A stretch of 64,000 nt of DNA, from the NCBI GenBank assembly GCA_044229975.1, contig JBGARZ010000002.1, forward strand, positions 704,001-768,000, written 5' to 3'. Below are positions 14,329 to 29,804 of the stretch, piece after piece. Within the stretch, counting starts at the first letter, position 1. Each line of letters begins with the position of its first letter. This stretch comes from Polyangiales bacterium (GTDB taxonomy: Bacteria > Myxococcota_A > Polyangia > Polyangiales > Ga0077539). Made by a program: the position numbers and the translations under genes. The notes beneath the pieces were generated by a model. That model did not search any database and had not been told where the DNA came from. It saw only the letters and a list, made by a program, of their open reading frames with translations.

Positions 14329-15141
14329 GTGTTGAGACCCGCGACCCTCTCCCTCTCTCTCTCCCTGGTCCTGCTGTCATCGCAGGCCTTTGCGCAACAG
14401 GCGACCACCGACGAGTCCCGACTCGAAGACGCACGCAACCAGTATCGGGCCGGCGTGCAGGCCTTCCAGCGTGGGCGCTTCGGCGAGGCGACGGTGGCGT
14501 TCGAGCGCTCGTTTCGCGCGCGCCCGCACCCCGCGACGCTCTACAACGCCGCCGAGGCTCGCATGCGAGCTGGCGACAACGAGGGCGCCCTTGCGCAGCT
14601 CCGAGAGCTCCTCGCGATGACGACGCCCGCGCCCGATGCCGACCTCGCGGGCCGTGCGCGCAACCTGGCCCTCCAGATGAACGAGCGTGACCTCCAGCCG
14701 GCCGTGGCACGGGTCGAGAGCGCCCCCTGCCCGACCTGTCCGACCTGCCGAACGGAGACGCCATCGTGTCCCCCGGCGCCCGAGCCCGAGGTGGTCACCA
14801 CGCGCATTGGCGGCGGGGCCTACGCGTTGGGCGCCGGTGCCCTGGTGTTGACCGCCGTGGGCTCGGGCTTCCTGGCGGTGGCGATCAACAACGCTTCGGT
14901 CTTCACGGACATCGGCGCGATGTCCAACCGCGCTGGTCTTCGCGAGGTGCAAGACCAGTTGCAGGACCAGGGCGAGACCTACCGCACGGTCGGCATCATC
15001 GGCCTCGCGCTCGGAGTCGGCGCGGCCGTGGGCTCCATCTGGATGTTCACGCACCCGCAAGAGCGCCGCTCGCAAGCGCCCACGGCCGGCCTCAACTTCG
15101 GCATCTCTCCCGGCGGCATGGCGCTGTCGGGTCGCTTCTAG
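14329..15141 (+). CDS. Exported TPR protein with two hydrophobic segments and C-terminal ...LSGRF
   Basis: Signal peptide AFA-Q; TPR (FERSFRARPHPATLYNAA); CPTCPTC linker; hydrophobic helices. Confidence 0.78.
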   Translation: MLRPATLSLSLSLVLLSSQAFAQQATTDESRLEDARNQYRAGVQAFQRGRFGEATVAFERSFRARPHPATLYNAAEARMRAGDNEGALAQLRELLAMTTPAPDADLAGRARNLALQMNERDLQPAVARVESAPCPTCPTCRTETPSCPPAPEPEVVTTRIGGGAYALGAGALVLTAVGSGFLAVAINNASVFTDIGAMSNRAGLREVQDQLQDQGETYRTVGIIGLALGVGAAVGSIWMFTHPQERRSQAPTAGLNFGISPGGMALSGRF

Positions 15142-15200
15142 CCCCGCGGCGCTCTGCCACGGGAGCCCCTCTCTGCCCGACAGGTCACGTCATCCCCACG

Positions 15201-16583
15201 ATGCCCAACGTCACGCCCTCCGTCACTCCTCCTTCGCCCGTCACCAACCTTCTTCAGCGCCTCAACCGAAGCGCCGATCGCCACTCGCGAATCACGGCGG
15301 GCCCGGTGCACGTCGGCTTCCCGGGTGGCGCGGTAGAGACCTACCACCTCGGCAACGGCCTGCGGGTGCTGCTCCAGATCGATCGACGCGCTCCGGTGCT
15401 CTCGTATCAGGTCTGGTTCAACGTCGGTTCGCGCCACGAACGCGAGGGCAAGACGGGCCTCGCACACCTCTTCGAACACCTGATGTTCAACGAGACGAAG
15501 ACCCTGCGGGCCGGTCGCTTCGACGCGTTGATGGAGCGCGCGGGCGCGGAGACCAACGCCGCAACCTGGACGGACTGGACCTACTACCACGAGAACATTC
15601 CCGCCGATCAGCTGCCGCTGGTGGTGCGGCTCGAAGCTGACCGCATGCGCAACCTCGTGCTCCATCCGAAGCTCGTCGCGAGCGAGAAGGAGGTCGTCGC
15701 CAACGAGCGCCGCTTCAGCGTCGTCGACAGCGTCGACGGCATGCTCGCGGAGACGCTCTGGTCGCTCGCGTTCAACACGCACCCGTACCACCACCCGACC
15801 ATCGGTTGGATGAGCGACATCGAGGGCTTCACGCCGGCCGACTGCCGGGCGTTTTACAAGACCTGGTACGCCCCCAACAACGCGACGGTGGTGGTCGTCG
15901 GTGACACCGACCGCGCGCGGGCGCTGCGGCTCATCCAGCGCCACTACGGTGCGATGCGACCGGCGACGATCCCCGACCTGACGATCCCCGACGAGCCCGC
16001 CCAGACCGACGACCGCCTCGCGGTGCTCGAGCTGCCGACGCCCACCGCCAAGGTCGCCATCGGGTTCAAGTGCCCCGCGTTCGCGCACCGCGATCACGCC
16101 GCGCTCTCCGTCCTCGTCGAGGCGCTCACCGGAGGTCGCTCGGCGCGCCTCTTCCAGAGCCTCGTGACCGAACGCGAGATCGCCACCGACGTCTCCGGGT
16201 GGGTCTCGCCGTTTCGCGACCCCGGGCTTCTCGACATCAGCGCCGTCGGACGCGGTGCGGTCACGCCAGAGGCGTTGCGTGAGGCGGTGGAGCTCGGCAT
16301 CGCGTCGGTGGGTGACATCCCCATCACCGAAGACGAGCGCGATCGCGCGATCGCGCGCATGGAGTTCGGCTTCCTTCGCGGCCTGGAGACCGTCGGCGGG
16401 CGCGCCGAGCTCCTCGGCAACAACGCCCTCGTGCTGGGCAACCCTGTCGGGAGCCTCACGCGCGTGGAGACGATGCGCTCCCTCACCGCCGCCGACCTCC
16501 AAGACGTCGCGCGCCGCTACCTGCTGGGCCAGGCCCGCTCGGTGGTCCTGGTGCGCTCCAACCTCGCCGCAGGGGTCGCGTGA
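15201..16583 (+). CDS. M16B zinc peptidase, catalytic subunit
   Basis: GLAHLFEHLMF (HxxEH), NAATWTDWT, EKEVVANERR, WYAPNNA. Confidence 0.93.
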   Translation: MPNVTPSVTPPSPVTNLLQRLNRSADRHSRITAGPVHVGFPGGAVETYHLGNGLRVLLQIDRRAPVLSYQVWFNVGSRHEREGKTGLAHLFEHLMFNETKTLRAGRFDALMERAGAETNAATWTDWTYYHENIPADQLPLVVRLEADRMRNLVLHPKLVASEKEVVANERRFSVVDSVDGMLAETLWSLAFNTHPYHHPTIGWMSDIEGFTPADCRAFYKTWYAPNNATVVVVGDTDRARALRLIQRHYGAMRPATIPDLTIPDEPAQTDDRLAVLELPTPTAKVAIGFKCPAFAHRDHAALSVLVEALTGGRSARLFQSLVTEREIATDVSGWVSPFRDPGLLDISAVGRGAVTPEALREAVELGIASVGDIPITEDERDRAIARMEFGFLRGLETVGGRAELLGNNALVLGNPVGSLTRVETMRSLTAADLQDVARRYLLGQARSVVLVRSNLAAGVA

Positions 16584-17869
16584 TGCCCCCGACCACCCTG
16601 TACTGCGAGTCCGCCCACGACCTCCCGCTCGTCGACCTGCAGCTCGTCGCACGCACCGGCGCGCAGCACGATCCGGCGGGCAAGGAGGGCGCGCTCAACC
16701 TCGCGCTCCGAACGCTCCGCCGCGGCACCCGCGCCCGCAACTCGCGGGAGATCGACGCGCTCATCGACCGGCTCGGTGGCGAGTTCGGCGCCTCGGCCGA
16801 CGTGAGCTCCGCGACGCTGCACGCCGCGGTCATCCGTCGCAACCTCCCGGCCTTCCTCGACCTGTTCGAGGAGTTCGTCACCGGCGCCACGCTGCCCGAG
16901 GCCGAGGTCGCCCAGGTGCGCCGCGAGATGCAGGCCGACATCGTCGAGAGCCGCGACGACGACCGCACGCTCGCAGGTCGCCACTTCCGCCGCACGCTCT
17001 TCGCGGGCCACCCCTACGGTCGCCCCACGCAGGGCACCGTCGCGGGCCTCGACGCGGTGACGGGTGACGACGCCCTCGCGGCCTTCCGGCGCACCTTCAG
17101 CCGCGACAACGTGTTCTTCGCGGCGGCGGGCGACGTCTCCCTCGCCGAGCTGGCGGCTTTCTCCGATCGCATCAACCCGGGGCTGGCTTCGGGGCCGTCG
17201 CCCACCACGACGATCGAAGCGCCGAAGCCCATCCGCGGTCGCCGCCTCGTGATCGTCGACAAGCCCGAACGGTCACAGACCCAGATCTACATCGGCAACC
17301 TCGGATCGCAGCCGCGCGACCGCGACCAGCTCGCGCTCTTCGTGGGCAACACCATCTTCGGCGGAACCTTCACCGCTCGCCTCATGCGCGAGATCCGCTC
17401 CAAGCGCGGCCTGTCCTACGGTGCCTCGTCGCGGCTCGGTCGCGACCGCGCGCGCAGCAGCTGGTCCATGTCGACCTTCCCTGCCGCCACCGACGCAGCG
17501 CGCTGCATCAGCATCCAGCTGTCGATGTTGGAGGGGCTGTTGGAGAAGGGCGTCACGGCGCGCGAGGTGTCGTCTGCGCGCGCGTTCATCACGCGTGGCT
17601 ACGCGTTCGAGCGCGACACCGCCGCGAAGCGTCTCGGACAGTTGATCGAGATCGACCTCCTCGACCTGCCGAAGTCCTACTTCGACGACTACATCGAGCG
17701 CATCAACGCCGTGACCGTGGACGACGTCAACGCCGCCCTCCGCAAGCGCCTCTCCGCGGACAACCTCCTCGTCACCGTCGTGGCCACCGCGGACACCCTC
17801 CGCGGGCCGCTGGAGAGCTGCATCCCCGGGCTCGTCGACACGCGCGTCGTGCCCTTCGACCGCGACTGA
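16580..17869 (+). CDS. M16B peptidase, non-catalytic partner subunit
   Basis: No HxxEH; GHPYG and RLMREIRSKRGLSYG (R/Y motif); 4-nt overlap with the catalytic subunit. Confidence 0.9.
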   Translation: MMPPTTLYCESAHDLPLVDLQLVARTGAQHDPAGKEGALNLALRTLRRGTRARNSREIDALIDRLGGEFGASADVSSATLHAAVIRRNLPAFLDLFEEFVTGATLPEAEVAQVRREMQADIVESRDDDRTLAGRHFRRTLFAGHPYGRPTQGTVAGLDAVTGDDALAAFRRTFSRDNVFFAAAGDVSLAELAAFSDRINPGLASGPSPTTTIEAPKPIRGRRLVIVDKPERSQTQIYIGNLGSQPRDRDQLALFVGNTIFGGTFTARLMREIRSKRGLSYGASSRLGRDRARSSWSMSTFPAATDAARCISIQLSMLEGLLEKGVTAREVSSARAFITRGYAFERDTAAKRLGQLIEIDLLDLPKSYFDDYIERINAVTVDDVNAALRKRLSADNLLVTVVATADTLRGPLESCIPGLVDTRVVPFDRD

Positions 17870-17890: not shown

Positions 17891-19456
17891 GTGGACGAAC
17901 TCCCCTCGGGCACCCTCTACGCCGGACGCTACGCCGTCGTCCGCCTCCTCGGACGCGGCTCGGTGAAGCAGGTCTACCTGGCCTACGACCGGCTCACGCA
18001 GACCCAGGTCGCCCTCGCGCGCCTCGCCGAGCGCCACGGCAGCGACGCCACCGTCGGCGCGAGGTTCTCGCGGGAGGCGCGCGCCGCTGCGGCACTGACC
18101 TCACCGTTCACGGTGCGGGTATTCGACGCGGGCAAGACCGCCGACGGTGAGCGCTACCTCGTGAGCGAGGCCGTGTTGGGTCGCGGCCTCGACGACGCCG
18201 TCGCGGCCGGACCGCTGCCCCCGCGCTTCGCCGCGACGTGGACCATCGAGGTGTTGAGCGCGCTCGCCGAGGCGCACGCGAAGGGGCTCGTGCACCGAGA
18301 CGTGAAGCCGGAAAACGTGATGCTCGCGCCGAGCGACGGCGACGCGATCGGCGAGGTCGCGCGGCTGACGGACTTCGGCCTCGCGAAGGTGCTCGACGAG
18401 CGGATGGAGGGCTCGGTGGTCGTCCGCACCGCCGCCGGCGTCGCGATGGGAACGCCCGACTACATGTCCCCCGAGCAGTGGTCGGGCGGCGCCGTCGACC
18501 TGCGCTCCGACCTCTACTCGGTGGGCGTGATGCTCTACGAGATGCTCCTCGGGCGGGTGCCCTTCGAGGGGCCCTCCCTCATGGCGCTGGCCGCGGCTCA
18601 TCACGTCGCGGAGGTCCCTGCCTTCCCCGACGACGCCCCGCCCGCGGTGCGCGCCCTCGAATCCGTCGTTCGACGAGCGCTGGCCAAGCGCACCGACGCG
18701 CGTTGGGCCTCCGCCGACGCGATGCGCGTTGCCATCGAGGCTGCAGCGGGTGTGCGCCTCCCGACGCCGCCCACGGTGCGGGCGCTCATCCCCGATGACG
18801 AGGTGCTCGACGACGTCGCCCACGTCGAGCTGATGAGCGACGCGGGCATCGGCCCCATCCAGGTGCTCGCAACACCGCGCTTGTTCCTGGGACGAACGGG
18901 GCACGTCGTGGCGCGCTGCCTTCCGCAGTCTGAAGACAACGACCGCCGCTCGCGATCGGTCTCTCGTCGCCACGCGCGCATCGAGTGGCGCGGCGGCCAC
19001 GCCTCTCTCGCCGACGCCCGCAGCGCGTCGGGCACCTCCCTCAACGGCCGCGCCGTGCTGCCCGATCGCGACCCGATCCGCCTCGAACACGGCGACGAGA
19101 TCGGCCTCGGCCCCCACGTCCGCTTCCTGTTCGAGCACGCCCGCGCGCCTGCTGGAGAGCTTCCGTCGTGGGCCCGCCTGACGCGCCTCGACCGCCACGG
19201 CGAAGGCATCGTGCACGTGCTGGTGCTCATCGAAGCGATCGTCTCCACATCGCCCGACGCCGCCGTCGTCGCGCCGACGAGCGCCCGCGACGCGACGCTG
19301 ATCCTTCGCGCGCGCAACGGTCGCATGGTGGCGTTGCGCGACGAGTCCGAGATGCCCGTCGAGCTCTTCGACGGCCAGCGCTGGCGCCTCGGCGACACGA
19401 CGTGGACCGTCGCCGTGCACGACCGCCGCGGCAGCTTCCCGACCCCCGATCGCTGA
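17891..19456 (+). CDS. Ser/Thr kinase-FHA protein with WNK-like lysine relocation
   Basis: GRGSVKQVY, VALARL (no beta-3 Lys), RFSREA, HRDVKPEN, DFG, YMSPE; FHA motifs LGR, VSRRHARI, SASGTSLNG. Confidence 0.9.
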   Translation: MDELPSGTLYAGRYAVVRLLGRGSVKQVYLAYDRLTQTQVALARLAERHGSDATVGARFSREARAAAALTSPFTVRVFDAGKTADGERYLVSEAVLGRGLDDAVAAGPLPPRFAATWTIEVLSALAEAHAKGLVHRDVKPENVMLAPSDGDAIGEVARLTDFGLAKVLDERMEGSVVVRTAAGVAMGTPDYMSPEQWSGGAVDLRSDLYSVGVMLYEMLLGRVPFEGPSLMALAAAHHVAEVPAFPDDAPPAVRALESVVRRALAKRTDARWASADAMRVAIEAAAGVRLPTPPTVRALIPDDEVLDDVAHVELMSDAGIGPIQVLATPRLFLGRTGHVVARCLPQSEDNDRRSRSVSRRHARIEWRGGHASLADARSASGTSLNGRAVLPDRDPIRLEHGDEIGLGPHVRFLFEHARAPAGELPSWARLTRLDRHGEGIVHVLVLIEAIVSTSPDAAVVAPTSARDATLILRARNGRMVALRDESEMPVELFDGQRWRLGDTTWTVAVHDRRGSFPTPDR

Positions 19457-19460
19457 CGCG

Positions 19461-20996
19461 TCAGTCGAGCGGAGGCAGCGGGCGATCGCGCATCCGCCAC
19501 GCGGTGCGGGTGGCCACGGTCATGATGGAGAGCTGCGGGTTTACACCGAGGCTGGTGGGCAGAACGCTGCCGTCCGCGATGTAGAGCTCCTGCGTGTCCC
19601 ACACGCGCCCGTCGGGGTCGACCACCGAGTTCTCGCGCGAGCAACCCATGCGAGCGCTGCCGAGCGGGTGCTGCGACGCGCACTCGATGCGCGACGACGG
19701 AAACTTCGTCAGATCGGTTCGGCGAAAGGCGTCGGCGTCGAGCCCGCGCAGCCCGAGCACCGGGATGAACACCTCCTCCGCCCCCGCCGCGAAGAAGGTC
19801 TCCGCGAGCAGCGTGATGACCCGCGGAATCTTCGCGCGATCCTCCGGCGCCATCCGGTAGGTGACCACCGGCTCGCGACCCGGCCCGCGGTGCACCGTGC
19901 CCCCGCCCGCGTCGTGGATGATCCCGCCGAACATCGCGAGGTGGTCGATGTTGCGCGCCGCCGCCACGTGCTCCGGCCCGACCCCCGGCATCGTCGCGCC
20001 GAGCACGCCGTTGGGGACGAACAGCCCCATCAGCGTGATGCCCTCATGCTCGAACGCGTCGGTGTACGCGCTCTGCAACGCGCCCTGCCAGCCGCGCACC
20101 GGCCGCGCGAAGCGCGCCAACACCCTGAACCCCGGGTGCAACGTCATCCCCTGCCCGACCCAGCGCGGGTGCCCGACGCCGCTCCGTCGCAGCAGCAGCG
20201 GCGTGTGCCAGGCCCCCGCAGCCACGACGACCCGTCGTGCGCGCACCCGCAACCGATCGCCCGGCGAGGCCCCATCGCGGTTGAGCAGACGCCCCACGAC
20301 ACCCACCGCACGCCCGTTGCGAGTGACGACGCGATCGACCAGCGCGTGTGACCAGACCTGCACGCCCTGTTCGACGGCACGCGGCAGGTAGCTGAGGTCG
20401 ACGCTCATCTTGGCGCCGTGGGGGCAGCCGAAATTGCAGCGACCGCAGCCATTACAACCCTTGGTATTCCGCCGGATGGGCTTGATCGGCAGGCCCAGCC
20501 GCTCGGCCCCTTCGACGAAGAGCGAGGTCGAGCGGGAGCGCATCCCCACGGGCACCTCCTCGACGTGGATCGCCCGCTCCACGTGGCTGACGTAGGGTTC
20601 GAGCGCCGCCTCCGAGTACTCCTCCAGTCCCAGCTCGCGCTGCCACTCGTCGAGCACCGCGCCTGGGATACGGAAGCAGACGCCGCCGGTGAGCACCGAG
20701 GAGCCTCCCACGCACCTTCCCATGGTGACGTTGATGGCCGGGCTGTCGCCGACCCCCAACGCCGCGACGAAGGCCCCGTCGCGCCACGCGGGGCGCATCG
20801 ACTCGCTCGGACGCATCTGGCCGTGCTGCGGCCCCTCGATGCGTGGCCCCTCCTCCAACACGATCACCCGCAGCCCGCTCTGGGCGAGCTCCGTCGCGAC
20901 CACCGAACCTCCGGCCCCGGAGCCGACCACCACGACGTCGCAGTCGAGTTCCAGCGGACCGCGGTGATCGCGCGCCGAGAAGTACCCGCCGTTCAC
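19461..20996 (-). CDS. GMC family FAD oxidoreductase (long-chain alcohol oxidase-like)
   Basis: VVVGSGAGG, GRCVGGSS, CNGCGRCNFGCP, SQHPLGSARMG, PTSLGVNPQ; GTG start overlaps the upstream stop. Confidence 0.92.
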   Translation of the reverse strand: MNGGYFSARDHRGPLELDCDVVVVGSGAGGSVVATELAQSGLRVIVLEEGPRIEGPQHGQMRPSESMRPAWRDGAFVAALGVGDSPAINVTMGRCVGGSSVLTGGVCFRIPGAVLDEWQRELGLEEYSEAALEPYVSHVERAIHVEEVPVGMRSRSTSLFVEGAERLGLPIKPIRRNTKGCNGCGRCNFGCPHGAKMSVDLSYLPRAVEQGVQVWSHALVDRVVTRNGRAVGVVGRLLNRDGASPGDRLRVRARRVVVAAGAWHTPLLLRRSGVGHPRWVGQGMTLHPGFRVLARFARPVRGWQGALQSAYTDAFEHEGITLMGLFVPNGVLGATMPGVGPEHVAAARNIDHLAMFGGIIHDAGGGTVHRGPGREPVVTYRMAPEDRAKIPRVITLLAETFFAAGAEEVFIPVLGLRGLDADAFRRTDLTKFPSSRIECASQHPLGSARMGCSRENSVVDPDGRVWDTQELYIADGSVLPTSLGVNPQLSIMTVATRTAWRMRDRPLPPLD

Positions 20997-21433
20997 GAGG
21001 GCCTCTTCAGGCAGAGCCCGTCGTAGCCAACCTCGCGCGCCGCCGCGGGGTGCTCGTACCAGACGATGCAGAGCGCCGCCTTCGCACCAAAAAACGCCAG
21101 CGCGAGCGGGCTCTCCTCGAAGCGGGTGAGCGCGACCGCACGCGCCTCGGGAGGGAGCGCAGAGAAGCGCCCGAAGCGACCGATGAGGAGCGGCGCCAAC
21201 AGGTCGAGCACCGTGATGCAAAGCAGGAAGACCGAGCGAGAGCGGGTGCCAGCATGGGCGAAGAAGTGGTCGAGGTCATCGCCGAGCCATGTGAGGCGGT
21301 CGACCGGCGGCGCGCCCTCGTCCCGGGCGAACAACGTCCCAGCAATCGCCACTGCCACGCGACGAGCGTCGTCGGAGAGGCCGTCCCCACCACGCACGCC
21401 ATCCGGCACCTCGACACGCAATCCGTCCGACAT
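20993..21433 (-). CDS. Small GMC-associated protein (gluconate 2-dehydrogenase gamma-subunit-like)
   Basis: RFSALPPEARAVAL and WYEHPAAAREVGYDG; translationally coupled to the GMC gene. Confidence 0.7.
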   Translation of the reverse strand: MSDGLRVEVPDGVRGGDGLSDDARRVAVAIAGTLFARDEGAPPVDRLTWLGDDLDHFFAHAGTRSRSVFLLCITVLDLLAPLLIGRFGRFSALPPEARAVALTRFEESPLALAFFGAKAALCIVWYEHPAAAREVGYDGLCLKRPS

Positions 21434-21472: not shown

Positions 21473-22018
21473 CTAGCGGTTGTACTCGGGGGCGTACTGC
21501 CCGGTGGCGGGATCGATTCCGACCGCGCGCAGGCCGTCGTCGAGGGAGCGCGGAGTTGCGTCGGCGGCGACGGGGGCAGGCGTGCGGTTCCAGACGGTGA
21601 CCAGGGTGCGGTCGCCCTCGTCACGCACGCCAACGTCGACGACGAAGTTCGATTGCACGTTGCGGACGATGCCACGGTGGATCAGCGCCGCGAGCGGATG
21701 GATGTCCGCATCGCGCATCTCCAGGCGCTGCTCCAGATAGCGCATCACGCGCGGCATCGGCGCCTCGACCCTGAACGTCTTCATGCTGTCGGTGGCGAGG
21801 TGCTCCCGAGACACGGTCGGCATCGCGAGCCCGAACGCGCTCAGACTCCCAGGGAGCAGATCGTCGTTGGAGGGAGGAGCGTCGTCGAGCGACTGCTCCT
21901 GTACCACCGCAGCCGCAACAGGCGCCGCGGAGGCGGAGGGCGTGGCTCGTGGCCGACGGTGGCAGGCCACCACCGCCGACAACAAGAGGAGAATGCTACC
22001 GAGCCGGGTGCCCATCAC
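21473..22018 (-). CDS. Hypothetical lipoprotein coupled to pilY1
   Basis: Lipobox VVAC; ATGA overlap with the pilY1 stop. Confidence 0.72.
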   Translation of the reverse strand: MMGTRLGSILLLLSAVVACHRRPRATPSASAAPVAAAVVQEQSLDDAPPSNDDLLPGSLSAFGLAMPTVSREHLATDSMKTFRVEAPMPRVMRYLEQRLEMRDADIHPLAALIHRGIVRNVQSNFVVDVGVRDEGDRTLVTVWNRTPAPVAADATPRSLDDGLRAVGIDPATGQYAPEYNR

Positions 22019-25000
22019 TCAAAGACAGCGGCGACCGAGTCGATGCGCGAGGGGATGATCGGCGAGGGCAACGAGCGGGAGAACACAGCGGTGGTCGTCC
22101 CGCCCACCATCCCGGTCTGCGCGATCTGCAACACGAGGCGGTACTCGCCGCCCGTGGTGGAGCTCACGAAGGTGCGAGGCGAACCGGTGATCGGGTCGAT
22201 CACATCGGCGCTCACGTTGCAGTTCGGGCGGCGGGCGACCGCGACGCCGAAGAGCAGGCTGTTGGCGTCGTCGAGGTCGCTGCCGTTGTTGTTGAGGTCA
22301 CGCGTGACCCGCACGACGTCCGCCGTGGTCATCGGGTCGCCATCGCGATCGAGACGGCCCTGCGGGTACGTCGAGCCCGTTGGATCGTTGCGGCTCAGGT
22401 CAACACCCCAGAGGCGGGCCGCGCCCATCTGGCAAGGATCGGTGCCCGTCTGCGGCGCAAAGGTGCCGAAGTAGAGGACGTTGTTGAAGAGCGTCATGGA
22501 GCCCGTCAGGCGCTCGCCGGCGAGGAGATCGCGGTCCGTGGTCTGCGACCCCGGGCGAATACCCCAGTTCTCCTCGATGTTGATCGCGACCGAGGTGCCC
22601 GCGGCGTCCGTGGTCGTCGACTCCATGATGGACTCGATCCGGTTCTCCTGGGTGCCCGAGAGGTCTTCGGTGTCGCCCGATCCGAATGCGATGATCGTGC
22701 GGCCGAGGTCATCGATGCTGGTCACCGGGCGCTCGATGATGGGCTGACCGCTCTGATAGCCCCGATCCCAGAAGAGATCGAACTCGGTCGCCATCCACCA
22801 CTGGGCGGGGTTGGGGTTGGTCAGGTCGACACGCCAGAGCATGCCGTCCGCGTCGCCGACGTAGGCGCGCGTGGTGACGACACCAGCGAGGCCGTTGTAG
22901 AGGGCCGGCGCACCAACGATGGGGGAATGCGTTGGCGTGGGGCTCGTCGTCGTCGGCATCGCGGGGTCGTAGGGGACGGCCGACGGAGCAGCGCCGATCT
23001 TCCGGATCAGCTCACCCGTCTGGAGGTTGACCACGTAGAAGAACCGACCGTGGTTGCTGTTCCAGCAGCGGACGAAGGGACGCTGCGCGCCGCGACCACC
23101 GGACCAACCTGTCATGAGACCATTGGGCCGGGTGCTGCTCGGTGCCGAGGTCGGGGAGCAGCTCGCGGCCTGCTCACCGGTGCCGCCCGGAATGAACGCG
23201 ACCGCTCGCTCCACCGAGGGCCCGCCGTTCGGCGAATAGAACACCGTACCGATCGCCGGCGTGCCCGACGAGACGGTCAGGTCGGGGTCGGTGAACTGCC
23301 ACAGGAAGCGAGGGTTGTAGGGGTCCGTCACGTCCATGCCGATGTACGCGCCGCCGCCACCGCGGAGTCCCACCACGAGCACGGTGCGCCAGCTGCTGTC
23401 GTCCTGCAGTGAGCCCGTCGAGCGCTCGTAGTAGATCTCCTTGACCACCGGCGAGCCGTCGACACCCAGGGTACGGGTTGTCGGGTACCCGCTGCGAAGG
23501 TTGGGCACGAGGTACGGAGGGACAAACCCCCACACTTCCTCGCCCGAGTCCGTGTTGAAGGCGTGGAGCACGCCGTCGTTGCTGCCGACGTAGACAATGG
23601 GCTCACGCGTTCCGACGGTCACCGCGGTGCGACGACGGCCAGTGAGCGGCAACGTTCGCTGGCGAAAGGCGAGGAAGGTCTGGTCGGGGAGATTGATACG
23701 CGGCGCCGAGACATAGGTCGGCGTCGAGCGGAAGATGTCACCGAGCGGACGATCCTGCCGGATGGTGCCGACATCGCCACGAAGCCAGGCGAGCAGGTCA
23801 GAGACCTCCGTCGTCGTGGTGTAGTTGAACAGCGCCGGCGACATGGAGGGCGAGAGTTCGACCGCGGTACCCGCACCGGCCGTCAAGCCGTTGATCATCG
23901 TTTGGCGGAGGTCCGCAGAAGTGGTGGCGGTCGTGGGCACGAAGGTCCACAGGTAGCGACCACCCCAGCCACGGCTGTCGCGAATCGGGCGACGGAGATT
24001 GTAGGCAAAGTCATCGCCCGCAGCCTGATCCGGCGCCACTGGGGTCGGCACCGGAGGAGCACCCGACGACGGAGCCTGACAGACCGTTCGCGTGCGCGTG
24101 AGCAACCCGGACCACGGACGCCCGGGCGTCACGTTGAAGGCTGCATTGAACTGGTACTGGGAAGTTCCGCTTGCGGCCGTCGTGCCTGCCTCGCCAAACA
24201 CCGGCGGCGTGCGCGTCGAGGTCTGCGAGGTGATGGTATCGATGATGGCCGAGAGTGCGGCCGAGAACGTCGGCCGGTCGTTGGCGTAGTAGACGCGCGT
24301 CGTGTTGCCCGCCATCGCGATGGGCTCAAGCGCGCTGACCGCGTCGGGATCGCTGGCGTTGAACGCGAGCACGTAGGTCTTCACGTTGGGGGCACCGCCG
24401 CCTGCCATCGCCATTGCAAAGGCGGTCGCCGCAGGCTCCAGATACGGGCAGGTGCCACCCACGCACGCCGGGCGGAAGTCTGTCGGCGCGCCATCCGTGA
24501 TGAGGATGTTCGCGCGGGTTCGGCAGTTGAAGTAGGGGTCACCCGCGCCGCCGGACGAGCCGTCGGTGACGTCGGTGTTGTTACGCCAGTAATAAAGGGC
24601 GTCTTCCAACATGCCGGCGATGGGAGTGGCCCCGAACGGGCGCACACCAGGCATCTCCGTGACCATCGTCATCGGGTTGGCCACGCGACCCGCGAGGCTC
24701 TCCTGCACCTGGCGGTTGATGAGCGCGAGGGCCGCCGTGTCCGCGCTGGCTGGACCAACCGAGATGAGGCCGCCCGGCACCACATCGGCGACGTTGCCGT
24801 CCGTCGAGGCGCGCTTCGCTCCGACGTTGACCGTCAGCGGGGTCGTGCACATCGGCGGGCTGAAGATGCGGTCGCCGTTCGAGCCCGGACCCGTGGGGTA
24901 CGAGAACATCCCGTCGTTGGCGAGAGTGCCCGTGCGGTTGTCGTTGTCGAAGGTCATCAACCCGAAGCGCACGCGGTCGGCGTACACGTCGAGGATGCCG

Positions 25001-25440
25001 TCGTTCGCCTGGCGCGCGGCAGGGTCGTGCAGCGGCACGTTATGGGACAAGGGCTGGTGGTGCGAATACGCGTAAAGGTAATCGTAGTTGAAGTTGGCGG
25101 TGGTGCGCGCCGACTCCACACACGAGAATGCCTCGATGGTGCCAGTGAGCACCTCCAACGCAGTCGTCCAGCGGTTGCGCTGCTCGTCCGCGGGACATGC
25201 CGATGAGCACATCGACGCGCCGTTCGAGCACACGTTGCAGACGCCGCCCGACGCTCCCCGGCACAGGTTGTTGGGGACGTTGGTCCTGAACTCCATCGAG
25301 CCCGACGTGTCGTCGAGCACCATGATGTTCGGTCGAATCAACCGCACATCTGCGGGCTGAGCGCCCGCGATACGCGGGGCTGAAAGCCAGCCCAACACCA
25401 TGATGGAGAGGGCTCCGAGTCGCTTGCGGTTCAGTTGCAT
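22015..25440 (-). CDS. pilY1: Type IV pilus tip adhesin PilY1/PilC (vWA plus beta-propeller)
   Basis: Signal peptide; MIDAS-like DTSGS...ATP...LITDG; WLRGD, LGDIFRSTP, YVGSNDGVLHAF, EVWGFVP, GVDGSP, WRTVLVVGLRGGG; follows the minor pilins. Confidence 0.92.
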   Translation of the reverse strand: MQLNRKRLGALSIMVLGWLSAPRIAGAQPADVRLIRPNIMVLDDTSGSMEFRTNVPNNLCRGASGGVCNVCSNGASMCSSACPADEQRNRWTTALEVLTGTIEAFSCVESARTTANFNYDYLYAYSHHQPLSHNVPLHDPAARQANDGILDVYADRVRFGLMTFDNDNRTGTLANDGMFSYPTGPGSNGDRIFSPPMCTTPLTVNVGAKRASTDGNVADVVPGGLISVGPASADTAALALINRQVQESLAGRVANPMTMVTEMPGVRPFGATPIAGMLEDALYYWRNNTDVTDGSSGGAGDPYFNCRTRANILITDGAPTDFRPACVGGTCPYLEPAATAFAMAMAGGGAPNVKTYVLAFNASDPDAVSALEPIAMAGNTTRVYYANDRPTFSAALSAIIDTITSQTSTRTPPVFGEAGTTAASGTSQYQFNAAFNVTPGRPWSGLLTRTRTVCQAPSSGAPPVPTPVAPDQAAGDDFAYNLRRPIRDSRGWGGRYLWTFVPTTATTSADLRQTMINGLTAGAGTAVELSPSMSPALFNYTTTTEVSDLLAWLRGDVGTIRQDRPLGDIFRSTPTYVSAPRINLPDQTFLAFRQRTLPLTGRRRTAVTVGTREPIVYVGSNDGVLHAFNTDSGEEVWGFVPPYLVPNLRSGYPTTRTLGVDGSPVVKEIYYERSTGSLQDDSSWRTVLVVGLRGGGGAYIGMDVTDPYNPRFLWQFTDPDLTVSSGTPAIGTVFYSPNGGPSVERAVAFIPGGTGEQAASCSPTSAPSSTRPNGLMTGWSGGRGAQRPFVRCWNSNHGRFFYVVNLQTGELIRKIGAAPSAVPYDPAMPTTTSPTPTHSPIVGAPALYNGLAGVVTTRAYVGDADGMLWRVDLTNPNPAQWWMATEFDLFWDRGYQSGQPIIERPVTSIDDLGRTIIAFGSGDTEDLSGTQENRIESIMESTTTDAAGTSVAINIEENWGIRPGSQTTDRDLLAGERLTGSMTLFNNVLYFGTFAPQTGTDPCQMGAARLWGVDLSRNDPTGSTYPQGRLDRDGDPMTTADVVRVTRDLNNNGSDLDDANSLLFGVAVARRPNCNVSADVIDPITGSPRTFVSSTTGGEYRLVLQIAQTGMVGGTTTAVFSRSLPSPIIPSRIDSVAAVFE

Positions 25441-26105
25441 GGAATCACCGTGATGGCGCGGAGCGATTCCGTCCCGCGCGCGATGTTGGTGGGGTCAGTG
25501 CCGTAAAGGCTGGAAGCAAGTTCGGTCGTACCTTCGGACTCGACCAGGAGACGCACCGGGAGCACCGTGAGGCTCGGATCGCTCACATCGGTTCCCCGCT
25601 GAGGCGATGTGTCAGCACCAAGTTCGGTGACGCGGACCTGGAAGCGCGGCGTGAGACCGCCCGCGCCGAACGACCCCGCGGTGCGAGAAATGCCCGTACC
25701 CGTGGCGTCGGTGAACACCCTCTGAGGCGTCGTGATCACGTCGAAGTCGCCCAGGTAGAAGGTGTAGCAGGGAGGCGTGATGGGCCCGCGCGACGTCGTG
25801 ATGGTCGGACACCCCGGGATCCCCCCGGTCGTCAGCGCACGCACCCGGAGGTTGGAGCTGAAGTACGCGGCGCAGGCGGTGCGCAACCGGGTCATCACCG
25901 CCGACGCGCCGGCCTCAGCGACGTAGTGGGTCTGCGCCGACTGCCGGACGTAGCCCGACGAACGAATCTCGAGGGCCGACGAGCGCGTCACGAAGACCCC
26001 CGCAGCGCTCACCATCATGAGGAGCATCATCACGACAAACATCGCGACGCCGCGCTGTCCGCGCCGTGTCCTGTGCCGCCTCTTGCTGGTCGCTACACGT
26101 GTCAT
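25431..26105 (-). CDS. pilX: Minor pilin, PilX-like
   Basis: QRG/VAMFVVMMLL prepilin-like N-terminus without Glu+5; YVAEAG motif; AGGAGG SD before ATG 26105. Confidence 0.82.
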   Translation of the reverse strand: MTRVATSKRRHRTRRGQRGVAMFVVMMLLMMVSAAGVFVTRSSALEIRSSGYVRQSAQTHYVAEAGASAVMTRLRTACAAYFSSNLRVRALTTGGIPGCPTITTSRGPITPPCYTFYLGDFDVITTPQRVFTDATGTGISRTAGSFGAGGLTPRFQVRVTELGADTSPQRGTDVSDPSLTVLPVRLLVESEGTTELASSLYGTDPTNIARGTESLRAITVIPCN

Positions 26106-26125
26106 CGTCCTCCTGGGCATTCCGT

Positions 26126-27340
26126 TCAACGAAGGTTGCGAATCGCGAGATTGGGCACCGCGATCTCGGTGACGAGCGAGCGCACACGGGCTGCGCCGAT
26201 GCGGTTGTTGAACACGCGGAAGCGCGTCAGAGCCGACGTGGCGCCGCGAGGAACCCAACCAAACCCAGGCTCCTGATCGCGGTCGCGGATCGACAGCCGC
26301 ACGATGACCGACCGGATCTGCTGCGGGCGCGCGGTGGTCCCGCCGCTCGCCACCGAACCAGCCAAGGTCGTGATGGCGCTATCACCGAAGGCGAGCGTGC
26401 GCATCGAGGGTTGGGCCACGATGGTGTTGGCCGGATTGCCGAGGTCGTAGGCAATCGAGGCATCGAAGTCGACCGCGTACTCGCCGACGAGACGGGCCGC
26501 CGAGGTGATCTCGGTCGGGCTCGGGCGCAGGTCGTACTCGCGACGAATGAGGTCCGTCTTCGCCGCCCGTACGACCAGGTCGGTTGGGTAGAGTTCGCCG
26601 AGCCGCGACGCCAGGCTGCCGATCTCGTACTCGACCATCATCATCGGGGCGACGGTCGCGCCAACGCCGAGGCCCGCGAGACCGCAACCCGCCCCCGCGG
26701 AGCTCGCGCTCGCCCCCGCCCCCTGCACGAGCGGGCTCGACGCCAGGAGCAGCGACGAGAGGCCCGTGGAGTTGGAAGCCACCCAGGTACCGCCCATCGA
26801 GACCGCGAACTGCATCTGCCCGGTGGTGCTCATGATGCGCAGGAGGCGAGGCGACATCGCCGTGCCGAAGATGCGATCGAACTCGACCTGGCTTTGGATG
26901 CGCGTCCACTGCGGTGACTGGTTTTGCAGCGCGAGCGTTGAGCCCGACACGCCAGCGACGGTGTACTCGTCGGCAGAGGCGTAGTTGCCGGTCAGACGCA
27001 TCACGATGGGATTGATGTGCGCGTTGTCCGCAGGCAGCAGCGTGGGGTTGGGGCTGGAGCGCGCGATCTCGATGCCCTGATACCCCGTCGTCGGACGAGG
27101 GCAGACCCTCGGGTCAAGCACGCTGTTGGGCGTACCCATATAACCCGCGCGAGAGACGTCGGCGCGAATCTGCTCCATCGCAAAGCGCAGTCGGAGCTGC
27201 ATCTCCGCAGTGCGCTGCTGCTGATTGAAGGTCTCCGTGGCCGAGCTCGACACCGCGTACAGCGCCGACACGACGATGGACGTGAGGAGGATCGCGATGA
27301 GCAGCTCGACGAGCGTATAGCCGGGGTTCGAGCGCCTCAT
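26126..27340 (-). CDS. pilW: Minor pilin, PilW-like
   Basis: G/YTLVELLIAI prepilin motif; AMEQIRADVSRAGY; IRSVIVRL. Confidence 0.85.
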   Translation of the reverse strand: MRRSNPGYTLVELLIAILLTSIVVSALYAVSSSATETFNQQQRTAEMQLRLRFAMEQIRADVSRAGYMGTPNSVLDPRVCPRPTTGYQGIEIARSSPNPTLLPADNAHINPIVMRLTGNYASADEYTVAGVSGSTLALQNQSPQWTRIQSQVEFDRIFGTAMSPRLLRIMSTTGQMQFAVSMGGTWVASNSTGLSSLLLASSPLVQGAGASASSAGAGCGLAGLGVGATVAPMMMVEYEIGSLASRLGELYPTDLVVRAAKTDLIRREYDLRPSPTEITSAARLVGEYAVDFDASIAYDLGNPANTIVAQPSMRTLAFGDSAITTLAGSVASGGTTARPQQIRSVIVRLSIRDRDQEPGFGWVPRGATSALTRFRVFNNRIGAARVRSLVTEIAVPNLAIRNLR

Positions 27341-27933
27341 GAGTCATGCCTCTGGAGGGTCTGGCTCACGTAGATCGAGCGGATGTTGGTCGTGTCGGTG
27401 CTCACCGTGGAGGTCGCCGAGCGCGCGCAGTCGGAGTAGGCCGCCGGCCGAATTCCTCCCTGACGGAACCACCAGACCCGCACCTCAGCGCGGATGAGCT
27501 GGTTGGGGATGAGCGCCGTCAGCCGGACGTGCGTGCAGTAGTACGCGCGGAAGTCGGTGGTCGCGATGTCGTTGCCGAAGTAGTCGAACGCCGCGGTCTC
27601 GGTCAGCGCCGCAACGCTCGATGCGGGCGAGTCGGGGACATACCAATCGGTCGTCACCGTGCCGCCCAGCCGGGACAGGTACCAGGTGCCCGAGATGTTG
27701 CTCACCGGGTTGGTCTGCGAGGGCTGGGTCCACTGGTAGGAGTCGCGACGCAGACGATCCTGCCAGCGACGCGCGAGATTGGTCGCCATGGTGACCTCCT
27801 GGGCGCGCTGGTTCGCCCCCACGGCGGCGGTCTGCATCCCGACGATGCCGAGGATGCCCGTGGCGAGCACGCCCATCGCGGCGAGGACCTCGACCATCGT
27901 GTACCCGGCTTGCGATCGACGAGAGCGGCTCAT
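27337..27933 (-). CDS. pilV: Minor pilin, PilV-like
   Basis: QAG/YTMVEVLAAMGVLATGILGIVGMQ; ATG 27933 overlaps the upstream stop. Confidence 0.85.
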   Translation of the reverse strand: MSRSRRSQAGYTMVEVLAAMGVLATGILGIVGMQTAAVGANQRAQEVTMATNLARRWQDRLRRDSYQWTQPSQTNPVSNISGTWYLSRLGGTVTTDWYVPDSPASSVAALTETAAFDYFGNDIATTDFRAYYCTHVRLTALIPNQLIRAEVRVWWFRQGGIRPAAYSDCARSATSTVSTDTTNIRSIYVSQTLQRHDS

Positions 27934-28523
27934 GTGCGCATCCTCGGCATTCCCCCGAGGGGGATCAGGATGCGACGCGTCGCACCACCGGTCGTCTGGA
28001 ACACGTTGATCTGGAAGACGCCACCCGTGCCAAGAACGCTGCTGTCGTTGCTCCACGCCTGGCTCGTCGTGATGATCGGGTTGGTCGAGAAGAACGCTGC
28101 GCCCAGCGGCGTGTAGCAGATCTGAAGGTAGGTGGTGCCTGAGGGCACCGAAATGGTCGCCCCGAGGTTGTCGCGAGAAAAGCGCGCTTCGCTGAGGTCG
28201 AGGTTGGCGACCCGCTGCATCGGATCGAGCACGCCCGTCCCGAAGTTGGACAACCGGCACGAAGGCGACGACCCCTCGTAGGCATCGAGCCGGAGGGCGG
28301 CTCCAGCCTGCGACACGATGAGCGTCTGCGCCCGCCCGCGGTACATCGCCCTCGTGCGCACCTCACGAGCGACGTCGAGCACCGTCGTCGCCGCCTGCTG
28401 GATGCGGCGCTCACGAGACGCCTGACCCATGCCGGGCAGCGCGAGCGCCGTCACCACCCCGATGATGACGACGACGATCATCAACTCGAGGAGGGAGAAC
28501 CCGGCCTGTCGTGAGGTTGCCAT
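27930..28523 (-). CDS. Minor pilin, FimU/FimT-like
   Basis: QAG/FSLLELMIVVVIIGVVTALALP; EVRTRAM; first gene of the pilin cluster. Confidence 0.85.
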   Translation of the reverse strand: MATSRQAGFSLLELMIVVVIIGVVTALALPGMGQASRERRIQQAATTVLDVAREVRTRAMYRGRAQTLIVSQAGAALRLDAYEGSSPSCRLSNFGTGVLDPMQRVANLDLSEARFSRDNLGATISVPSGTTYLQICYTPLGAAFFSTNPIITTSQAWSNDSSVLGTGGVFQINVFQTTGGATRRILIPLGGMPRMRT

Positions 28524-28539
28524 CGCGGATCGAGACTTC

Positions 28540-28555
28540 TGCAATGCACATGCCC
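28540..28555 (-). promoter_or_regulatory. Putative sigma-54 (-24/-12) promoter of the minor pilin operon
   Basis: Minus strand reads GGGCATGTGCATTGCA, i.e. GG-N10-GC with TTGC, 16 nt upstream of the first ATG. Confidence 0.6.
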
Positions 28556-28760
28556 CTCCCCCCTCAGGCTGGAAAAGACAGCAGAATTCTTGCCCCCCCT
28601 CCCCCTCCCTCGACGGCATTTGCGTAACCGCGCAATCATTGCGGACCCCACTCAGAGGCCACCACAACGGCGCGAATGACGGCCTGGGTAGGCGTTTCGA
28701 CGACCATGGACGACCGGGCGCTTGCAGGCTCATCGCCTCGCACCGTATCACCCCGGCCCG

Positions 28761-29804
28761 ATGAACCGTACCCCCCTCTTGGTGATCTTTTCCCTGTTTG
28801 CAGCGTGTCGCAGGGAAGCGCCTCCACACCCGCCAGCGCCCCCGAGCGCCCCTCCGGCCCGGGCCCCGACGCCTGCGCCGACGCCCGGGGTCCCTCCGGC
28901 CGCCTCGGTCGACCCCCCGGCCGGGGCTGAGGCGTTTCGGGAGAGCGGTCGGTTTCTCCCCCAAGGTGTCGCTGCGCCGGGGTGGAGTCAGAGCGGGGCC
29001 GTGCGCCTCGTCAACGGACAAGAGCTCTTCCAGGTCATCGACGGCGCAGGGGCGAAGTACATCGAATACGGCTTCCGGCAGATGGCCCGTACCGACTACC
29101 GCAAGGCCGGTACGCAGCTGGTGGTGACCGCGGAGGTCTACGACATGGGCTCGGCGCTCGGGGCATTCGGGCAGTATTCTCTGCAGCTCAGCGACTCGCG
29201 CGATCCTGCTTCCATGCAACCGCGTGCCGTAGCGCACGGAGGAGGAGGATTTCTTGGCACCAGTCAGCTCGTGTTCTGGCGTGGCCAGTACTTCGTTGTC
29301 CTCAATCTCGCGGATGACTCGGGCGAGCAGGATGAGGCAGCTCTTGCCACAACCGCGCGCGAGGTGCTCCCTGCATTGGCGACAACGATGGCCGCGGCGA
29401 TTCCGGGAGAGACGTCGCCCCCCGCGCCGCCCGCTGGGATGCCGACCGACTCTCTGGTCTGGGGTGGCCTGACCTATCTCGCGAGCAACGTCCTGGGCAT
29501 CGAGCAGAGCGGTGCGGGCTGGGTCGGCCACTATCAGGTCGCGGGGGGCGCGCGCTATCGGATCGCAATCCTGTCCCGACCGTCGCCAGAGGAGGCTCGA
29601 CGGGTCCTCCTGCGGGTGCGCGAAGCGAGCGCAACGGGGCTCACGGGCATCGGCGACGAGGCCTTCGCCGGCCCCAACGTCGTCGCGGCTCGGAAGGGCA
29701 GCACCGTGATCGCGGTGGCGGGGCCCGTCCCCGAGAGCCTCACGGCGCTCCCCCGAGAAGCGCGCATCGAGCGCCTTCGGGCCGTCGTCGGGGCGCTACC
29801 CTGA
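28761..29804 (+). CDS. Lipoprotein, DUF6599-like
   Basis: Lipobox FAAC; LFQVIDGAGAKYIEYGF, EVYDMGSALGAFGQYS, FWRGQYFV. Confidence 0.7.
   Translation: MNRTPLLVIFSLFAACRREAPPHPPAPPSAPPARAPTPAPTPGVPPAASVDPPAGAEAFRESGRFLPQGVAAPGWSQSGAVRLVNGQELFQVIDGAGAKYIEYGFRQMARTDYRKAGTQLVVTAEVYDMGSALGAFGQYSLQLSDSRDPASMQPRAVAHGGGGFLGTSQLVFWRGQYFVVLNLADDSGEQDEAALATTAREVLPALATTMAAAIPGETSPPAPPAGMPTDSLVWGGLTYLASNVLGIEQSGAGWVGHYQVAGGARYRIAILSRPSPEEARRVLLRVREASATGLTGIGDEAFAGPNVVAARKGSTVIAVAGPVPESLTALPREARIERLRAVVGALP

Follow-up and report, generated by a model that had tools for sequence, protein, structure and literature searches.

Among eukaryotic protein kinases (ePKs), the With-No-lysine (WNK) kinases are described in the available text of PMC1821047 as the sole functional family lacking K72, and WNK1 is reported to be active with K233, supplied from β2, taking the place of that residue (PMC4718504, PMC1821047). 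The accessible portion of PMC7606576 places chloride in WNK1 at G370/L371 with F283, L299, L369 and L371, reports that inhibition is relieved by L369F, and proposes that the lysine shift serves to make chloride binding possible through the freed β3 position; ions are also described near WNK1 T301 (PMC13397483, part of text). A comparable displacement, of positive charge away from position 72 to 55 and independent of WNK, has been proposed for the CAK-chloro subfamily of protein-kinase-like small-molecule kinases (Kannan 2007, PMC1821047, as far as the text is accessible), which differs in having Arg rather than Lys, Phe in place of the αC Glu, and membership in the choline/aminoglycoside kinase group instead of the PknB type. 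Bacterial kinases are recognized by an RF motif in αC, a gatekeeper Met and a G-loop Met (bioRxiv 2025.01.12.632604, partial text). The VAIK lysine is also lost in the published pseudokinase families ActPs1-3, GLW, CP1, DYD and DLHK; going by their descriptions in the available text of PMC12599244 and bioRxiv 2025.01.12.632604, these also alter HRD, DFG or the αC Glu, or have a β3 Arg, β2 arginines are proposed to bind ATP in DLHK, and a G-loop Lys is described in none of them.

A gene of a Polyangiales bacterium encodes a kinase-FHA protein with the WNK arrangement in a bacterial setting. It lies in the window, the whole 64,000-nucleotide stretch of DNA that was analyzed, with the following features:

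17891..19456, + strand: kinase-FHA gene, 521 aa; soluble Ser/Thr kinase, linker, FHA domain, β-sandwich module
17930..18748, + strand: PknB/Pkn2-type kinase domain, about residues 14-286 (Pfam Pkinase, E 7e-37)
17966..17968, + strand: Lys26, codon AAG, in the glycine loop (LGRGSVKQVY) where the third Gly would stand; equivalent to WNK1 K233
18017..18019, + strand: Ala43, codon GCG, at the β3 lysine position, in VALARL
18062..18076, + strand: αC helix with Glu62 and the bacterial RF motif (R58-F59), each in 53/53 family rows
18164..18166, + strand: Ser92, small gatekeeper where bacterial kinases usually have Met
18293..18316, + strand: catalytic loop HRDVKPEN (R136, D137, K139, N142), invariant in 48/48
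18371..18379, + strand: DFG; its Phe162 (53/53) occupies the column of Leu369 in the WNK1 chloride site
18413..18430, + strand: candidate autophosphorylation sites of the activation loop, Ser175 and Thr180
18818..19144, + strand: FHA domain; GR 334-335 and SxxH 358-361 retained, NG Asn replaced (Ser380)
19154..19429, + strand: predicted all-β C-terminal module (AF2 strands), possibly a degenerate second FHA lacking phosphothreonine-binding motifs

Pfam recognizes the kinase and FHA domains in the protein, and its AF2 model has a mean pLDDT of 85.9, with low values in the loop 171-184. The first-pass annotation had placed a Lys at the third loop glycine and an Ala at the β3 lysine; alignment to StkP and to homologues confirms both. 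Its reading of the αC Glu62, HRDVKPEN, DFG and SPE as intact likewise stands in the sequence, and alignment of the kinases of this genome bears out that the other three kinases in or overlapping the window retain VAxK. The protein resembles eukaryotic WNKs (WNK1; PDB 5w7t, 6cn9) in its loop Lys, small β3 residue, identical spacing between the two, small gatekeeper, and intact αC Glu, HRD and Mg Asp. It departs from them in overall identity (~24-29%), in DFG for DLG (Phe at Leu369), in the absence of VAW and KCDN, and in its bacterial RF motif and FHA architecture. Mycobacterium tuberculosis PknB and Streptococcus pneumoniae StkP provide the best sequence and fold matches and share the RF motif, RD loop and a GTPxYMxPEQ segment; unlike these, the kinase-FHA protein has no β3 Lys, transmembrane segment or PASTA domains, has replaced the G-loop and gatekeeper Met, and carries a C-terminal FHA domain.

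The K26/A43 swap is a fixed trait of the kinase-FHA family. A protein search returned 59 family matches (P0002-P0060, E 2e-90 or better), below which the matches fall to ordinary kinases; some are labeled at source as Polyangiales, Myxococcaceae or Deltaproteobacteria MAGs. Lys26 is present in 54/55 homologues that cover the position, the loop of P0032 being garbled, and a β3 Lys in none of the 56 that cover β3. Loop Lys and loss of the β3 Lys covary across homologues, the comparison that the first-pass annotation had proposed. Position 43 is occupied by small residues for the most part (A34 C9 S6 G3 V1 in 53 rows). The 53-row set had been filtered on the loop Lys and so was not used for counting K26; invariance was scored on 48 of the 59 matches, with 11 partial or aberrant rows omitted. 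Because the outgroup rows of the homologue alignment (P0061-P0121) are partly misregistered or come from second kinase domains, controls were drawn instead from the kinases of the same genome, from same-pattern loops and from the canonical rows of the 53-row comparison. Among the best 150 representatives, three new full-length matches all carry the swap, and no sister group with the same C-terminus and a canonical Lys was found. A sequencing artefact is excluded as the source of the swap, since orthologues carry it too, and Arg44 is rejected as a substitute catalytic residue, Arg occurring in only 9/53 rows.

Beyond the family, the same association holds across prokaryotes, in which the swap is widespread, a point absent from the first-pass annotation. 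At the DNA level, 8 of the 64 parts of the GTDB collection were scanned for GxGxxKxV[FY]x[AG]xDx6VA with the β3 residue left free, which gave 124 loci with 122 distinct motifs, three of them not kinases; the whole collection is estimated to hold ~980 stretches with the motif. The β3 Lys is absent from 118/119 kinase N-lobes with a loop Lys, the exception (L121) being a short frame, and as related loci are not independent, this figure means that a few clades have fixed the trait and does not stand for 118 separate events. In the control from the same genome (228 kinase rows aligned, 13 gapped), the β3 Lys is kept in 203/214 kinases without a loop Lys, the swap occurs in one kinase, and no kinase combines the two lysines; in the same-pattern control, it is kept in 13/13 non-Lys loops. 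This near-perfect covariation supports the earlier proposal of a compensatory WNK-type site. The pattern matches are mostly from Chloroflexota and Actinomycetota, and AAA_16 was found in 13 of 19 scanned, accompanied in some by TPR, cyclase or zinc-ribbon domains. These kinase-AAA_16(STAND)-TPR/cyclase proteins share with the kinase-FHA family the Lys/small-residue swap, the small gatekeeper and the DFG Phe; they differ in length (about 1200-1400 aa) and in their AAA_16, TPR, cyclase or zinc-ribbon domains. Members of this large clade, found among the matches L001-L124, come from the cultured species Mycolicibacterium hodleri (L088) and Mycobacterium gastri (L103), and one comes from a Bathyarchaeia MAG (L077). 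Small further swap lineages (L003, L037, L072, L080, L083, L113) stand apart from both main clades in trees; such lineages include PVC kinases with HLD/DWG, a Myxococcota ARPP-1 fusion and a divergent Verrucomicrobiae kinase.

The gatekeeper is a third position that covaries with the lysine swap. It is T30 S14 L7 in the 53 family rows (T/S in 44/53), T/S in 34/48 rows of the STAND clade and T in 34/40 WNK rows, as against Met in 81/115 and Thr in 2/115 canonical kinases of the same genome; these counts are HMM-aligned, and a few WNK rows are misregistered. At position 25, the G-loop Met site, the family has V31 T10 A7 M3 S2 (53 rows), Met being mostly lost. The remaining catalytic positions are constant: K26, E62, H135, R136, D137, K139, N142 and D161-F162-G163 are invariant in the 48 aligned rows, S175 and T180 are each found in 47/48, and both residues of the RF motif (R58, F59) in 53/53. 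The kinase domain has a dN/dS of 0.22-0.26 relative to four same-genus orthologues, and the family is under purifying selection.

We consider the product to be a PknB/Pkn2-type kinase-FHA protein in which K26 stands in for the β3 Lys, likely catalytically active in the cytoplasm and with a WNK-like site of probably separate origin from that of eukaryotic WNKs; judged from sequence, this reading has a probability of roughly 0.7. By analogy to WNK1 K233, K26 would reach from β2 to the ATP phosphates and E62, into space left by the small side chain at position 43 and by S92, the small gatekeeper; D137 would act as the base, and N142 and D161 would hold Mg. The RD motif and the conserved S175/T180 suggest activation by autophosphorylation of the activation loop. 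With R335, S358 and H361 kept, the input would be phosphothreonine read by the FHA domain, and the protein would therefore act downstream, relaying signals within the genome's network of roughly 200 kinases, rather than as an ion sensor.

The conserved motifs would also fit an ATP-binding pseudokinase. Such a protein, or one of very low activity, would serve as a scaffold through its FHA domain or as an allosteric partner, and the part of K26 would be confined to holding the nucleotide or shaping the loop. This alternative is unlikely, although several features would suit it: the β3 Lys is missing in all members, as it is in all seven published bacterial pseudokinase families according to the available text of bioRxiv 2025.01.12.632604; the Met residues usual in bacterial kinases at the G-loop and gatekeeper positions have been lost; and 11 other kinases of the same genome have no β3 Lys. 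Those 11, which have no loop Lys either, are mostly degraded in the loop, HRD or DFG, whereas the kinase-FHA protein keeps all motifs. (Genome-wide, 223 frames have Hanks kinase domains, and the 11 with neither Lys are probable pseudokinases.) Against a dead enzyme also speak the invariant HRD Asp, K139, N142, DFG and E62, a combination unlike that of the published pseudokinase families as partially accessible, the conservation of S175 and T180, and the placement of the Lys exactly as in WNK1, which is active according to the portions of the cited sources available. The active kinase proposed in the first-pass annotation is thus probable, given the invariance of the other catalytic residues and the low dN/dS.

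That annotation had further suggested that the enzyme may respond to ions or osmolarity. An active kinase with WNK1-like chloride inhibition or osmotic sensing, through a back pocket that the moved lysine leaves free, would draw on the proposal that the freed β3 position permits chloride in WNKs (PMC7606576, in part), on the small gatekeeper matching WNK1 T301, near which ions are described to bind (PMC13397483, in part), and on G163 and L164 matching G370/L371. In the family, however, the chloride-pocket columns read F162 in 53/53, V77 in 53/53, L164 in 53/53 and L90 in 44/53. Chloride sensing appears unlikely because Phe at the 369 and Val at the 283 equivalents are found in 53/53 rows, and Phe162 corresponds to the chloride-insensitive substitution L369F (PMC7606576, partial text); moreover, ion-transport genes are absent from the annotated neighbors. 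Ion or osmolarity sensing is thus not supported, and we regard this reading as very improbable.

The origin of the swap can be considered separately from its function. Fold, RF motif and trees place the protein among bacterial kinases of the PknB/Pkn2 type and not among WNKs. The best PDB sequence matches of its kinase domain are StkP/PknB, and the top Foldseek match is PknB (TM 0.92 on target). With the eight columns around the swap masked for trees and identities, mean best-match identities are 43% (canonical kinases of the same genome), 42% (STAND clade), 29% (WNKs) and 28% (other ePKs), the eukaryote-type WNKs coming from metagenome and viral contigs and the ePK outgroup being giant-virus-derived and long-branched. 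Giant-virus-contig WNK-type kinases (L265-L273) group inside eukaryotic WNKs yet have DFG, not DLG (8/8). In quick trees, one with 100 rows and one with 50, the family forms a clade (100%) that sits among canonical bacterial kinases and away from WNKs, the backbone support being no more than 80-87 SH-aLRT; this was the tree of WNKs and bacterial kinases that the first-pass annotation had called for. In an AU test of six trees (LG+F+G4; 50 rows and 255 columns; each tree from a single search of 40 iterations), family plus WNK (p 0.004), STAND clade plus WNK (0.0035) and all swap-bearers together (0.0002) are rejected, whereas family plus STAND clade (p-AU 0.62, best likelihood of the six) and family with canonical kinases (0.25) are retained. 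Two-tree AU tests of family plus WNK gave p 0.060 (mixture model) and 0.064, without rejection.

It is highly improbable that the family is a true relative of WNKs, acquired from or ancestral to the eukaryotic ones. The identity of swap positions and spacing, such that the motif pattern also retrieves WNK-type sequences, the two-tree p values near 0.06 and the placing of WNK1 among the better eukaryotic matches of the N-lobe alone would agree with such kinship, yet StkP/PknB outrank WNK1 even for the N-lobe, the family resembles WNKs at best about as closely as other ePKs (29% against 28%), it has the RF motif and no VAW, KCDN or DLG, and the six-tree test rejects the grouping. The WNK-like site is thus very probably independent of that of eukaryotic WNKs, and the convergence suggested earlier is probable: PknB provides the best fold match, identity is 43% against 29%, and one AU test gave p 0.004, with the other two at 0.060 and 0.064. 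A single bacterial origin, with the STAND-kinase clade of Chloroflexota/Actinomycetota as sister or as parent group of the family, is possible but doubtful. The constrained tree joining the two has the best likelihood of the six, and identity to the STAND clade equals that to canonical kinases; however, canonical kinases lie between family and STAND clade in every unconstrained tree, and the two clades differ at the RF Phe, the pre-DFG residue (T versus G), the hinge and in architecture.

No published description of bacterial WNK-like kinases, the STAND clade included, was found in a search that covered subscription literature thinly. A broader reading, offered tentatively at somewhat less than even odds, is that lysine migration is a recurrent working redesign (loop Lys, small β3 residue, small gatekeeper) with several bacterial inventions, in which the kinase-FHA family would have its own origin and be active and chloride-blind; the shift would then be a prerequisite of which eukaryotic WNKs made use later, by way of DLG, and not a chloride-sensing adaptation. 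Bacterial swap kinases with a DFG Phe separate the lysine shift from chloride binding, and the reason for the lysine move in WNKs therefore becomes testable with small proteins. Standard rules would call the kinase-FHA protein, likely a working enzyme, dead, and the VAIK rule would miscall as pseudokinases many prokaryotic kinases, as ~980 GTDB stretches are estimated to fit one strict motif. From the small gatekeeper that covaries with the swap, a larger back pocket is predicted, with possible use for selective inhibitors or analogue-sensitive substrate labeling.

Outside the kinase domain, the FHA fold is confirmed by fold search. All three of GR, SxxH and NG are described as important for phosphothreonine binding (PMC3162421, available text). 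GR and SxxH are each kept in 48/48 family rows, and the change of the Asn motif noted earlier is real, Ser380 standing in place of the NG Asn. Phosphothreonine binding may be altered, because this Asn is found in 0/48 rows and is kept in 43/46 FHA motifs of the same genome. Two other FHA domains of the genome have SG for NG (C32:118835-119983, C38:829309-832431). Residues 422-513 form a confident all-β module in the AF2 model, consistent with the separate C-terminal module of the first-pass annotation; the FHA likeness proposed for it is weak (internal-repeat and Atlas signals against the first FHA) and phosphothreonine-binding motifs are absent; the module is possibly a degenerate second FHA. 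An orthologue of the C-terminal region is present in 21/24 genomes of the same family and in 0/16 other families, and none was found in 249 genomes outside the family (phylum sample, at most 11 candidates scored per genome). The kinase-FHA protein with the swap belongs to one myxobacterial family.

Across 14 loci of relatives, no operon partner or substrate gene beside the kinase is conserved family-wide. Two tandem M16 peptidase subunits (14766-17869, + strand) lie directly upstream, ending 21 bases before the kinase start, and such a pair is found upstream only in four same-genus loci of the 14. Downstream, a GMC oxidoreductase pair (19461-21433) separates the gene from a type IV minor pilin cluster (21473-29531, - strand; N-methyl pilins, PilX_N, PilY1) that converges on it. 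Type IV pilus genes are near the kinase in 9/14 loci, on the opposite strand or separated, with a pilY1 cluster tail-to-tail in 7/14 and PilM nearby in 2/14; this proximity may be inherited synteny. In 5/14 loci (L397, L399-L402), a co-directional pair lies upstream, made of an unclassified protein of ~500 aa with no Pfam match and a TPR/HEAT protein, both of which are encoded on other contigs in the present genome. The ~500-aa protein of these five loci has a DxSxS motif reminiscent of vWA.
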